Assembly (NCBI GenBank): GCA_964016885.1
Contig: OZ024759.1
Span: 11,470,001-11,534,000 of the forward strand
Source: Eledone cirrhosa
Taxonomy: Eukaryota
Reading direction: 5' to 3'
Length of the DNA stretch: 64,000 bases
The notes beneath the pieces are model-generated. The model saw only the letters and a program-made list of their open reading frames with translations, did no database searches and was not told the DNA's origin. Below, piece by piece: positions 5,732-52,906 of the stretch. Position 1 is the first letter of the stretch. The number at the start of each line of letters is the position of its first letter. A program made the translations under genes and the position numbers.

Positions 5732-5743
5732 CTGATTGGGAAG
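5732..5743 (+). CDS. Candidate 12-nt phase-1 microexon CTGATTGGGAAG, (A)DWE
   Basis: Long pyrimidine tract ...ttcttttctttgtttttttttttaacttcaaAG, then the exon, then donor GTattt. Length is divisible by 3. Shares TGGGAAG|gtatttat with the 25421 exon. Confidence 0.6.
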
Positions 5744-6184
5744 GTATTTATAAATTTATACTTTTTATATTTTTAATCCAAGTTTTAATCCCTGACATCT
5801 TGTTCTCCCAGTTCTGCTTCTTTTTCACCATTCTACTTTTTTATGTTCTTTTTTTTTATGCTTTTAATGTGATGGCCTAATGGTTAGGGTGTTGGACTGT
5901 CGATCATTATGTGGTGGGTTCAATTCCTGGATGGGGCAGCATGCTGTGCACTTAAAAAAATCAATCATTAGGGTCTTTATACACCACTGTATATATATAG
6001 TGGTAAGAAACCCCACTCAAGTGAGTGTGTCAGCCATTAATATATATATTTTGAACTATGGATTTGTAGGTCCAGGAAACCCCACTCATGCTGGTATTTC
6101 AAAAGATGCAACCCATACATGATCCACCCACTCCTCAAAACAGGAGCTCATTATCCCTGGTGCTTATCCCTGCTCTCTTTGAGT

Positions 6185-6403
6185 TGTGCTACTAAGAGAG
6201 AATGCTATCCTCCTGGACAGGACACCAGTCCATCACAGGGTTAAACCCCCAGCTATTGCTGGTAACACATTTTCAGCTGAGAACACTGGAACAATGCGAA
6301 ATGAAGTGTTTTGCTCAAGAATACATACAACACACAACCCGGTCAAAGGAATTGAGCCCACAGCATTATAATCATAAGTCCAACACCCTAACCACCAGGC
6401 CAT
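6185..6403 (-). mobile_element. Old tRNA-headed SINE (related head also at 5870-5955, + strand)
   Basis: Reverse complement reads catggcctggtggttagggtgttggac...ttcttgagcaaaacacttcatttc...ccctgtgatggactggtgtcctgtccagg. Confidence 0.65.
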
Positions 6404-6408
6404 GTATA

Positions 6409-6680
6409 TACCATATCTACACAAATATAAGCTGAACCCCATTATTTTGTGTTTGAGAAATGGGCAAAAATCCAAACCTTATTTATCTAAAATTTGAAGT
6501 TGATGAATATTGTCAAAATATTGACCTCTATTATAAAGTGACCCCAACTTCTATCAATTTTGGGGGTCACACATTCCTTAAAATTGTCAAAATATTGACC
6601 CCTATTATAAACTGACCCCATCTTCTATCAACTTTTTGGGGTCACATATTCCTCAGCTTCTATTGGTGTATATACAGTAT
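6409..6680 (+). mobile_element. pogo/Tc2-like MITE (copies at 20240-20450 - strand and 37033-37209 + strand)
   Basis: Degenerate TIRs taccatatctacacaaatataagc / gcttctattggtgtatatacagta and a shared internal tgagaaatgggcaaaa...ggtcacatattcct. Confidence 0.6.
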
Positions 6681-49185: not shown

Positions 49186-51685
49186 CATACAGAGACAGAC
49201 AGACACACATACATATATATATATATATATATACATACACACACACACATACATATATATATATATATATATATATATATATATATACATACACACACAC
49301 ACATACATATATATATATATATATATATATACATACACACACACATACATATATATATATATATATATATATATATACATACACACACACACATACATAT
49401 ATATATATATATATATATATACATACACACACACACATACATATATATATATATATATATACATACACACACACACATACATATATATATATACATAAAC
49501 ACACACACACACACATATATGTACATACACACATATATATATACATACACACACACACACATATATATGTACACATACACACACACACATATATATATAT
49601 ATATATATACACACACACATATATGTACATACACACACATATATATATATACATAAACATACACACACACACACATATATATATACACACATGTATATAT
49701 ATACACACACACACATATATATATATATATACATACATACACACACACATATATATATATACATACACACACACATATATACATACACATATATATATAC
49801 ATACACACACACACATATATATATATATATATATACATATATATATACACACATACTCACATACAGAGAGACACACACATACACACACAAATATATATTT
49901 ATACACATACACAGAGAGACACACACATACACACACAAATATATATTTATACACATACACAGAGAGACACACACATACACACACAAATATATATTTATAC
50001 ACATACACAGAGAGACACACACATACACACACAAATATATATTTATACACATACACAGAGAGACACACACATACACACACAAATATATATTTATACACAT
50101 ACACAGAGAGACACACACATACACACACATAGATATATTTATACACATACACAGAGAGACACACACATACACACACAAATATATATTTATACACATACAC
50201 AGAGAGACACACACATACACACACAAATATATATTTATACACATACACAGAGAGACACACACATACACACACAAATATATATTTATACACATACACAGAG
50301 AGACACACACATACACACACAAATATATATTTATACACATACACAGAGAGACACACACATACACACACAAATATATATTTATACACATACACAGAGAAAC
50401 ACACACATACACACATAGATATAACACCACACACACACACACACACACACACACACACACACACACACACAAATATATATTTATACACATACACAGAGAG
50501 ACACACACATACACACACAAATATATATTTATACACATACACAGAGAGATACACACATACATACACACATAGATATAACACCACACACACACACACACAC
50601 ACACACACACACACACATGTATGTCTGATATCTATAATTTATTGAAGGGAAAAATCAATTCTTCTTTCTTCCTTTCTTTCTAGGTTTTGTCTCTCTCTCT
50701 TTTATGTCATTTTCTGTGTTGTCTTTGATTAGATTAATTAATTAATTAAATCTCCCCCCCCCTCTCCTTTTTTTTCTCACTAATAACAATAACAATTATT
50801 TTGTATTTAAATGTTTCGAAAAAGAAATGTCTTTTGTAATTAATATTTTTATTGTGATTATATATATGTATATGTGTGTGCATAGGTATGTATGTGTGTG
50901 TGTGTATATATATATATATATGTGTGTATATATATGAATATATGTGCGTGTATATATATATATATATATATAGGTGTGTGTGTGTGTATGTATATGTGTA
51001 TATATATATATGTGTGTGTATATGTATGTGTATACATATGTGTGTGTGTATATGTATATATATATATGTGTGTGTATATATATAAGTATATATATATATA
51101 TATATATATGTATGTGTGTGTATATATGTATGTATATATATGTATGTGTGTGCATATATGTATATATATGTATGTGTGTGTATATATGTATATATATGTA
51201 TGTGTGTGTATATATGTATGTATATATATGTGTGTGTATATATGTATGTATATATATGTGTGTGTATATATGTATGTATATATATGTATGTGTGTGTATA
51301 TATGTATGTATATGTATGTGTGTGTATATATGTATATGTATGTGTGTATATATGTATGTATATATATGTATGTGTGTTTATATATGTATGTATATCTGTG
51401 TGTGTATATATGTATATGTATGTGTGTATATATGTATATGTATGTGTGTATGTATGCCTATATGTGTGTGTGTATATATATATGTATATATATATATATA
51501 TATATGTATATATATATATATATATATATATGTGTGTGTGTATATATATATATGTATATATATGTGTGTGTGTATATATATATATGTATATATATGTGTG
51601 TATATATATATATGTATATATATATATGTATATATATATATGTATATATATATATATATGCGTGTGTGTATATGTATATATATAT
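49186..51685. repeat. (CA)/(TA)/(TG) field including a 48-bp higher-order unit (49860-50570)
   Basis: acagagagacacacacatacacacacaaatatatatttatacacatac is repeated. Confidence 0.95.
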
Positions 51686-52291
51686 AAAATATTAAAAAAA
51701 TAATGAATAAAACAATGAAACAGTTCCTTATATTAAACAAAAAAAGTTCATTATTTAACGATCGTTTCTGGGATATATATGTGTTAGAATTGGCATGCAT
51801 ATTCAACAGATCTATGTACAAAATTATACAAACTATCAAAGAGAATATACATACCAACACATATATAAGCTGTCTTCAGAAATAAAATATGTATATTCTC
51901 TTTGATAGTTTGTATAATTTTGTACATAGATCTTTTGAATATGCATGCCAATTCTAACACATATATGTCCTAGAAACGATCTTTAAATAATTGTTTCTAC
52001 TTTTGGCACAAGGCCAGCAATTACCCAGTACATTACTGGTACTTTATTTTATCGACCCCGTAAGGATGAAAGGCAAAGTTAACCTCGGCGGGATTTGAAC
52101 TCAGAATGGCAAGGGCCGTAACTCTATACGTCAAAGTATGGCGTCCGACCCTCTACCGACGCTGCCAATCCACCGCCCTGGATTGGCAGCGTCGGTAGAG
52201 GGTCGTTAAACGATCGTTAAATAATGAACTTTTTTTGTTTAATATAAGGAACTGTTTCATTGTTTTATTCATTATTTTTTTAATATTTTAT
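51684..52291. mobile_element. Fold-back element (~170-bp arms) with a family A SINE (51987-52205, - strand) inserted in the right arm
   Basis: Near-perfect arms. aaacgatc(t/g)ttaaataat is duplicated on both sides of the SINE, as a target-site duplication would be. Confidence 0.8.
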
Positions 52292-52891
52292 CTTGACTCT
52301 GTATTCCGTTTATCTTTCACCGAAAGTGATTTTTCATTGCATCTCTTCTTTCCATGATATCCGGAATACATTGAGTTCTTCATACGGATTGGACACTACC
52401 GTAAACTCTTGGTAGATTTATCTACATATATATATATATATATATATATATATATATGTATGTGTGTATATATGTATGTATATGTGTGTATATATGTATA
52501 TATATGTGTGTGTGTGTATATGTATATGTATATATATATATATATATATATATATGTGTGCGTGTGTGTGTGTGTATGTATATGTGTGTATATATGTATA
52601 TATATATATGTGTGTGTGTATGTATATGTATATATATATATATATATGTGTGCGTGTGTGTGTGTGTGTATGTATATGTGTGTATATATGTATATATATG
52701 TGTGTGTGTGTGTGTATGTATATGTATATATATATATATATATATGTGTGCGTGTGTGTGTGTATGTATATATATATATATATGTGCATGTATATATATA
52801 TAAGGTATGCAATGTATGTGCATATATAGAATGTATATAAGATATATATATATAAATATATTCTCTTTTCTCTTTTCCTTTTATTTCTCAG

Positions 52892-52906
52892 CCAGGAATT
52901 GGGAAG
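52892..52906 (+). CDS. Candidate 15-nt phase-1 microexon CCAGGAATTGGGAAG, (A)RNWE
   Basis: ttctcttttctcttttccttttatttctcAG | exon | GTaatt. Differs from the 25421 exon only by AGA>AGG and AAC>AAT, both synonymous in the phase-1 frame. Confidence 0.7.

Follow-up and report, generated by a model that had tools for sequence, protein, structure and literature searches.

Microexons in unc-13 and in other genes

A 9-nt microexon of unc-13, VLK, is neuron-type specific in C. elegans and Drosophila and tunes transmission (PMC12287369), and mouse Unc13b carries a 6-nt nSR100/SRRM4 microexon with a neuronal phenotype (PMC4387716). The array described here, from the octopus Eledone cirrhosa, resembles the first in belonging to the same gene, in having units of 9 nt among its exons and in preserving the reading frame, and the second in being found in a Munc13 gene. 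Both described microexons, however, are single. VLK lies between the CaM site and C1, ~200 kb downstream here, whereas the octopus array follows C2A; the mouse exon lies between exons 13 and 14, whereas the octopus has six at another site. The VLK site of the octopus genome holds two separate phase-0 candidates, and since these exist besides the array, the array is a separate locus. Neural microexons that depend on eMIC and SRRM3/4 have UGC near the acceptor and a long AG-free zone (PMC8797185). The AG-free zones of the octopus microexons measure from 35 to at least 179 nt. UGC lies near the acceptor in just one of the six, so that the sequence lends no clear support to eMIC/SRRM4-type neural control.

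Schistosome micro-exon genes consist of 10-20 short exons, and their products are short secreted proteins that carry signal peptides (10.1101/2023.06.21.545858). The octopus locus shares with them a run of short exons, mostly multiples of three in length, and long introns. An earlier note on this DNA had proposed a hidden giant micro-exon gene whose host could not be named. The host can now be named from flanking exons and protein matches as unc-13/Munc13, a conventional multi-exon gene, in which the six exons account for 23 residues of a large C2A-C1-C2B-MUN protein. Despite symmetric 9-15 nt exons and long introns, a separate gene of the schistosome type has virtually no likelihood: the exons are spliced into UNC-13 in the two sequences P0001 and P0338 described below, the second of which refutes the idea; the exons mapped on its flanks and elsewhere in the gene are of ordinary type; and the protein starts with C2A, to which P0001 aligns from its first residue, unlike a short secreted product with a signal peptide.

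The six-exon array and its host gene

The window, which is the whole stretch of 64,000 nucleotides analysed (contig OZ024759.1, positions 11,470,001 to 11,534,000), contains three short segments, each preceded by a pyrimidine tract and AG and followed by GTA, exactly where the earlier note had placed them. It had treated them as a family of three; the members are real, but the count was too low, since a scan of the flanks located GYE and DWE units upstream and a further GYE downstream, giving an array of six. The features, in genomic order, are as follows.

L037:7909-8032 = C20:11427909-11428032, + strand: 124-nt exon ending C2A in phase 1, outside the window
L039:4965-4973 = C20:11444965-11444973, + strand: microexon 1 of 6, GYE, 9 nt, upstream of the window
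L040:3314-3322 = C20:11453314-11453322, + strand: microexon 2 of 6, DWE, 9 nt, upstream of the window
Window 1-5731, + strand: 3' part of the 22.4-kb unc-13 intron following microexon 2
Window 5732-5743, + strand: unc-13 microexon 3 of 6, ADWE, 12 nt, phase 1-1
Window 5744-25420, + strand: unc-13 intron of 19.7 kb separating microexons 3 and 4, largely repetitive
Window 25421-25435, + strand: unc-13 microexon 4 of 6, first ARNWE, 15 nt, phase 1-1
Window 25436-52891, + strand: unc-13 intron of 27.5 kb separating microexons 4 and 5, largely repetitive
Window 52892-52906, + strand: unc-13 microexon 5 of 6, second ARNWE, 15 nt, phase 1-1
Window 52907-64000, + strand: 5' part of the 13.0-kb unc-13 intron following microexon 5
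L002:1919-1927 = C20:11535919-11535927, + strand: microexon 6 of 6, second GYE, 9 nt, downstream of the window
L003:4589-4668 = C20:11548589-11548668, + strand: 80-nt helix exon with a phase-1 start, downstream of the window

The last C2A exon and the helix exon are 120.6 kb apart; all six microexons lie between them, and the window outside its three microexons is unc-13 intron. Their lengths in order are 9, 9, 12, 15, 15 and 9 nt; all are at most 27 nt long, have AG/GT ends and preserve the frame. Together they encode 23 residues, 8 of them acidic. Every one is symmetric, so that all 64 subsets stay in frame and would add from 0 to 23 residues, and the choice of subset could give up to 47 distinct linker sequences. 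A seventh DWE-like stretch (L041:6232) has an acceptor, no donor at +9, and no counterpart in P0338. Other microexon arrays seem to occur in the Eledone cirrhosa genome.

The host of the microexons is the single-copy unc-13/Munc13 gene. The exons flanking the array match Munc13-1 C2A structures (E 2e-9 and 9e-12). P0001, a spliced 2536-nt contig from a more distant cephalopod, joins exons that span 350 kb in Eledone cirrhosa; it is colinear with them on the + strand over ~350 kb, and 7 of its 7 genome matches are at the unc-13 locus. An N-terminal C2A domain is present, with which the P0001 product aligns from residue 1, and C1, C2B and MUN follow downstream in the same gene, strand and order (tblastn of Patella UNC-13 against C20:11.71-11.93 Mb). 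Conventional exons outnumber microexons in the gene, with more than 30 mapped against six to eight. Troponin T is another microexon-rich gene; it was rejected as the host, as its family matches lie on C1 and C3 and none is at this locus.

Several lines of evidence indicate that the three window segments are neither chance splice-like motifs nor copies of a dispersed repeat, a reading to which we give next to no weight although the region is ~82% repeats. The 9-nt motif of exon end and donor occurs three times in the window, always on the + strand, while shuffled sequence had a mean of 0.45 and none of 100 shuffles reached three. A search of the 3.0-Gb genome with a degenerate 21-nt pattern, comprising the 15-nt exon and its splice sites, gave two matches (control 0), and the window contains both; a pattern found only twice genome-wide is no dispersed repeat. 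The chain of six exons and the matches to P0001 and P0338 argue in the same direction, and P0338 is decisive. Besides the repeat content, one point in favour of the chance reading is that the splice-site scoring matrix was built for this analysis, with donor weights tuned once these donors had been seen. The lowest acceptor score under this matrix is that of the 12-nt ADWE exon (AAG, 5.6 bits).

As the earlier note had reported for the two 15-nt copies, there is no extended flanking homology: the 400-nt flanks have little in common beyond splice-proximal and simple sequence. The third window exon is bordered by simple repeats. Segmental duplication or an assembly artefact was rejected because these flanks are mostly unlike, and a self-BLAST of 464 kb gave no match overlapping the three exons. 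Two substitutions, at exon positions 5 and 8, separate the 15-nt copies, and each is synonymous in phase 1. The segments cannot be read in phase 0, because the exons on either side of the array both meet it in phase 1 and because the P0001 and P0338 proteins contradict such a reading. Both 15-nt exons contain an internal AG, use of which would leave an out-of-frame 11-nt exon.

Spliced products in cephalopods and inserts in other taxa

An Octopus sinensis RefSeq model annotated as 'protein unc-13 homolog B-like' (XP_036368007.1, here P0338) contains all six units in the same order. Its residues 83-105 are identical at 23 of 23 positions to the translation of the six exons in genome order, a chain that was predicted from the Eledone cirrhosa DNA before P0338 had been seen. 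The match bears out the phase-1 coding reading, the chaining in genomic order and the protein-level conservation that the earlier note had proposed. The exons neighbouring the array are also conserved between the two species (39/39, 40/41 and 26/26 residues identical), whereas a nearby optional exon is ~76% identical between two octopods. P0338 represents the same gene and the same array, but it is an automatic 388-residue fragment model that is without the first C2A strands and the C1-MUN core, lists one form and leaves the exons undescribed.

P0001 contains only the first two microexons (GYE and DWE), and its source may be a lineage with just two of the exons. Conservation in related species therefore holds for the full chain in O. 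sinensis and for two units only in the more distant cephalopod. On the evidence of one gene model with six exons and one contig with two, the microexons are part of the spliced product, and the obligatory mutual exclusion that had been entertained is refuted by the same pair. Protein searches for ADWE and ARNWE yielded one carrier, P0338, through a cluster look-up; the broader protein sets were negative. Neither unit stands at the C2A-helix junction in a first set of 151 proteins (anchor in 94) or in a second of 122 (anchor in 106), and none of 27 candidates from a junction-region search (782-2230 residues) carried the units. Among the proteins searched, none from an octopus carried just some of the six units.

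In searches of sequencing runs, an intronic kilobase gave 21 RNA-type matches of small share and three stronger, unclassified ones. The upstream C2A exon had no match in six of eight runs; in run X22, which may be the source of this DNA, exon and intron both matched, as expected of DNA. A single contig of 187 nt came from run X16; it is spliced from the preceding C2A exon and ends 16 nt short of the upstream exon's end, before the microexons. Inclusion of the microexons in varying numbers within one octopus is plausible.

An optional insert at this junction stands out in many insects and molluscs. Of 16 mollusc genera, 11 have representatives with a 4-residue insert at the C2A-helix junction, and in six species it is both present and absent among models of one species. 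The gastropod and bivalve inserts (DVVA, DIVA, DFVA or EAVA) occupy the same protein position as the octopus array, but each is one hydrophobic unit of four residues, unlike in sequence to the six acidic-aromatic units of the octopus; no exon of this mollusc type was found in the Eledone cirrhosa intron. Insect UNC-13 has a longer insert at the same junction. In the vertebrate sequences retrieved, C2A runs straight into the helix, a few odd models excepted.

The C2A-helix linker and a proposed change in the grip on RIM

In rat Munc13-1, the RIM zinc finger is bound at one end by the C2A sandwich and at the other by the helix, with an extended linker spanning the distance; the extension is needed for tight RIM binding and strengthens homodimers (PMC1472246). 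RIM binding relieves Munc13 autoinhibition, and C2A also binds MUN, an interaction that RIM relieves (10.1101/2024.01.24.577102). This C2A/RIM switch governs vesicle priming and release probability; by analogy with the rat and worm papers, UNC-13 here would bind the RIM zinc finger and prime vesicles. The cephalopod C2A, linker and helix align collinearly with the complex of Munc13-1 C2A and the RIM2-alpha zinc finger (PDB 2CJS), in which rat Munc13-1, unlike octopus, is without insert. The octopus insert follows directly the equivalent of rat Munc13-1 L131, where the alignment to 2CJS has a 6-residue gap. By this alignment the insert falls within the linker that, in rat, connects the two prongs gripping the zinc finger. 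In sequence, cephalopod C2A also retains residues of the homodimer and RIM interfaces, with equivalents of V31, K32, S33 and E63. The authors of 2CJS doubted that invertebrates use the helix (PMC1472246); the octopus helix exon has 9 of 19 identities to the vertebrate helix, and AlphaFold2 predicts the native helix at pLDDT 82-85. The genome encodes a RIM zinc-finger exon (found with PF22601; E 7.5e-16 to the 2CJS partner), which covers 39 of 52 profile positions and is without the part that receives the helix. Matches to FYVE_2 were rejected as RIM because they did not look like it.

We consider it fairly probable that the six frame-preserving microexons, likely spliced in varying mixes, would change the grip of UNC-13 on the RIM zinc finger. 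The array may have grown by exon duplication, and octopus neurons may include different subsets, by which the linker would gain between 0 and 23 residues. Greater length and acidity of the linker would then shift the balance between homodimer and RIM heterodimer, and thereby release probability, in either direction. More tentatively, and with less confidence than not, we suggest that a single optional exon site became, in octopods, a set of six switches acting as a dial on the Munc13-RIM clamp, which sets RIM affinity and release by cell type. If so, a single unc-13 gene would let each cell type adjust its release probability and its short-term plasticity, and the array would represent graded, splice-encoded control at a site undescribed for it, in the invertebrate group with the largest brains. 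The surprise is limited because one RefSeq model already has the sequence and other microexon arrays seem to be present.

An unlikely alternative, though one with some claim to attention, is that the six exons, although genuine, invariably occur as a full set or are switched as one block, which would fix the octopod linker and leave RIM binding ungraded. The sole octopus witness, P0338, has all six; the linker in 2CJS is mostly unpacked against RIM; and the eMIC signature is weak. Variable splicing is favoured instead by the symmetry of the six exons, which keeps every subset in frame, by the optional insert at the same junction in six other mollusc species, by P0001 with two of six exons, and by the identity of 23 of 23 residues between two octopods against ~76% in the nearby optional exon.

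Splicing might also vary while the insert acts on another partner, which we regard as improbable. Candidates are MUN and the C2A homodimer, both tied to autoinhibition, and kinesin light chain, bound through Trp-acidic motifs for axonal transport. The binding of C2A to MUN and its relief by RIM (10.1101/2024.01.24.577102), the strengthening of homodimers by the extension (PMC1472246) and the 8 acidic residues among the 23 of the insert are consistent with such a role. Two units place Trp between acidic residues, which agrees with a loose W-acidic definition (PMC6214655); the putative kinesin or Arp2/3 docking would fit only two of the four Trp units. None of the four, however, has a Leu two residues upstream of Trp as in the SKIP peptide, Asn precedes Trp in two, and the position of the insert points to the RIM clamp.

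Returning to that clamp, the full insert could act as a substitute helix that replaces the native one in the RIM crevice, but this is very doubtful. Phmmer places the insert gap-free on the rat helix, and AlphaFold2 predicts a helix at P0338 85-98, at a pLDDT of ~60. The BLOSUM score of the insert is 11, against 41 for the native helix, with p 0.017 in register and 0.17 over 9 registers in a post hoc test, and its hydrophobic moment is 0.09, against 0.39 for the native helix.

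The microexon array and its host gene

The three segments that the earlier note read as Trp-acidic microexons are present exactly where it placed them (window positions 5732-5743, 25421-25435 and 52892-52906). The 9-mer spanning their common exon end and donor occurs three times in the window, always on the + strand, against a shuffle mean of 0.45. In the 3.0-Gb genome, a 15-nt exon together with its splice sites is matched at two places, both inside the window, so the motif is not a dispersed repeat. A home-made splice matrix, applied to 200 kb of DNA before the window and 400 kb after it, revealed three further microexons, all on the + strand, in the flanking scaffold where the note had suggested looking.

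Microexons and candidates by contig position (L042 and L046 are flanking pieces of DNA)
C20:11444965, + strand, 9-nt microexon upstream of the window, splice-matrix scan
C20:11453314, + strand, 9-nt microexon upstream of the window, splice-matrix scan
C20:11470001-11534000 (G000), the window
C20:11535919, + strand, 9-nt microexon downstream of the window, splice-matrix scan
C20:11742380 (L042:8380-8388), + strand, 9-nt phase-0 microexon candidate VVK, in the intron holding the known VLK microexon site
C20:11774182 (L046:182-190), + strand, 9-nt phase-0 microexon candidate VMK, in the same intron

When exons of 3-27 nt with acceptors of at least 5 bits and donors of at least 4 bits were sought on both strands of 664 kb, 22 candidates were found, 19 on the + strand and 3 on the minus strand; lengths divisible by three belong to eight of the former (the array's six and the two at the VLK site) and one of the latter, counts that are purely descriptive because the matrix uses approximate frequencies and its donor weights and thresholds were tuned after the candidates were known.

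The host gene of the array is unc-13. Ordinary exons on both sides match the Munc13-1 C2A structures 2cjs and 2cjt, and exons for C1, C2B and MUN lie downstream. The exons of P0001, a protein from a spliced contig that is probably of another cephalopod, map colinearly on the + strand across about 350 kb, and at the array locus its genome matches are 7 of 7. Protein identity to O. sinensis marks the animal as an octopod; the sequence is nevertheless distinct from that of O. sinensis, with about 76% identity in one optional exon close by. Phase 1 is where the exon before the array ends and where the exon after it starts, which fixes the reading frame as the phase-1 frame that the note had preferred.

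All six array exons end in G, and their first bases complete a junction codon for Gly, Asp or Ala. Any of the 64 possible exon subsets keeps the frame; between them they yield 47 different strings with 20 insert lengths, from none to 23 residues. The seven array introns measure 8.3 to 27.5 kb, and the total gap is 120,556 nt.

An internal AG lies four bases into each 15-nt exon (window 25425 and 52896) and would give an out-of-frame 11-nt exon if used; an ancestral DWE-type exon may have had its acceptor there. A DWE-like 9-mer at L041:6232-6240 (C20:11466232) follows a pyrimidine tract and AG, has no donor at +9, and is a decayed copy or chance. The first eight donor-side intron bases are identical in five of eight microexons (L039:4974, window 5744 and 25436, L042:8389, L046:191) and absent from all four conventional exons checked; this match could stem from a common origin or from control that the exons share.

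Co-inclusion and variation at the C2A-helix junction

P0001, encoded by a 2536-nt contig, carries the array's first two units at the C2A-helix junction. It is a spliced product, because the exons joined there span 350 kb in the E. cirrhosa genome, and it probably comes from a more distant cephalopod, since its helix exon matches E. cirrhosa at just 18 of 26 residues. Residues 83-105 of P0338 (XP_036368007.1, an Octopus sinensis RefSeq model) comprise all six units and are identical to the genome-order translation, an order predicted from the DNA before comparison with either protein; one automatic gene model is the witness to the full chain. The three units of the window thus follow one another as the note had chained them. 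Obligatory mutual exclusion, and the note's separate hidden micro-exon gene, are refuted by the co-inclusion of several units within these two UNC-13 proteins. The array of octopus unc-13 is real and conserved, and its position is functionally suggestive.

We consider it probable that inclusion of the array exons varies in octopus; the rival is a fixed linker. The C2A-helix junction was surveyed in 122 sequences, and the anchor was located in 106. Sixteen mollusc genera were represented: in 11 of them the representative sequences have a 4-residue insert (DVVA and variants) at the array's site, and in Bradybaena, Biomphalaria, Magallana, Ostrea and Pinctada they lack it. Cluster listings covered at most 15 members each, the largest cluster having 157; among the members listed, models with and without the insert number 3 and 1 in H. 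asinina, 5 and 2 in H. cracherodii, 9 and 3 in Pomacea, 11 and 1 in Mizuhopecten (plus 1 odd), 6 and 1 in M. trossulus, and 5 and 1 in P. caerulea; none of the listed oyster and heterobranch-snail models reaching the junction has it. Several insects carry a longer insert. Optional sequence is thus widely tolerated at this junction. A search of octopus DNA for a DVVA-type exon found none.

In the largely open-access literature covered on octopus, unc-13 and Unc13b microexons, tandem exon duplication and cephalopod unc-13 splicing, no description of the array was found; apart from one database gene model it is apparently undescribed. The supplements of a 2019 eMIC paper could list array exons. 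So could those of a study covering O. bimaculoides, whose main text does not mention unc-13 (10.64898/2026.09.05.749416). As far as their available text goes, the published sites differ from the array's: the worm/fly VLK microexon sits between the CaM site and C1 (PMC12287369), and the mouse Unc13b microexon between exons 13 and 14 (PMC4387716). Excerpts of other sources describe eMIC features and a fly/mouse unc-13 exon (PMC8797185), Aplysia unc13 isoforms from alternative starts (PMC9282427) and MEG features (10.1101/2023.06.21.545858).

The insertion site and the RIM clamp

Aligned to 2cjs, P0001 shows a 6-residue gap adjoining the equivalent of L131, with the helix in register afterwards, and the array's intron starts directly after the codon for that residue. 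In the accessible text of PMC1472246, residues 129-150 of rat Munc13-1 form linker and helix, C2A holds one end of the RIM zinc finger and the helix the other, with the extended linker spanning between them, and tight binding requires the extension after C2A. A RIM zinc finger similar to the partner in 2cjs is encoded in the E. cirrhosa genome. The native helix shares 9 of 19 residues between octopus and vertebrate and is predicted with pLDDT 82-85. The insert is itself predicted as a low-confidence helix (pLDDT about 60) in a P0338 model with mean pLDDT 55.7 and the first C2A strands missing; a reading of the insert as a substitute helix scored weakly when tested.

Most likely, an optional-exon site would have grown into the array through exon duplication, and differing inclusion would make the linker that joins the two RIM-binding prongs longer or shorter and alter its charge. 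UNC-13 would thereby shift between a RIM-bound form and an inhibited homodimer. Available excerpts report that RIM binding relieves C2A autoinhibition (10.1101/2024.01.24.577102) and that worm C2A, too, forms both dimers (PMC6389284). Action of the insert through RIM is a tentative proposal, slightly less likely than not; a rival is action on another partner: MUN, the homodimer, or kinesin light chain (W-acidic motifs are treated in the accessible part of PMC6214655).

Other features of the locus

At the VLK site other molluscs have VLK, VIK or VMK, and the known microexon seems, from the candidates VVK and VMK, to be duplicated too. A pair of mutually similar 10-11 residue exons at L011 and L013 (C20:11629964 and about 11645950), both in P0338 and neither in P0001, forms a second duplicated-exon region within unc-13; the two exons enclosing it are themselves partly duplicated. 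The optional exon at L005 (C20:11569488-11569592), present in the proteins P0338 and P0012 and not in P0001, diverges more than its neighbours.

Within an array intron, window 47779-49100 holds broken ORFs. These resemble parts of a LINE element, its endonuclease and reverse transcriptase. At about 20550-24940 lies a tandem minisatellite several kilobases long, and a further stretch with even, skewed composition runs to the window's end (59000-64000).
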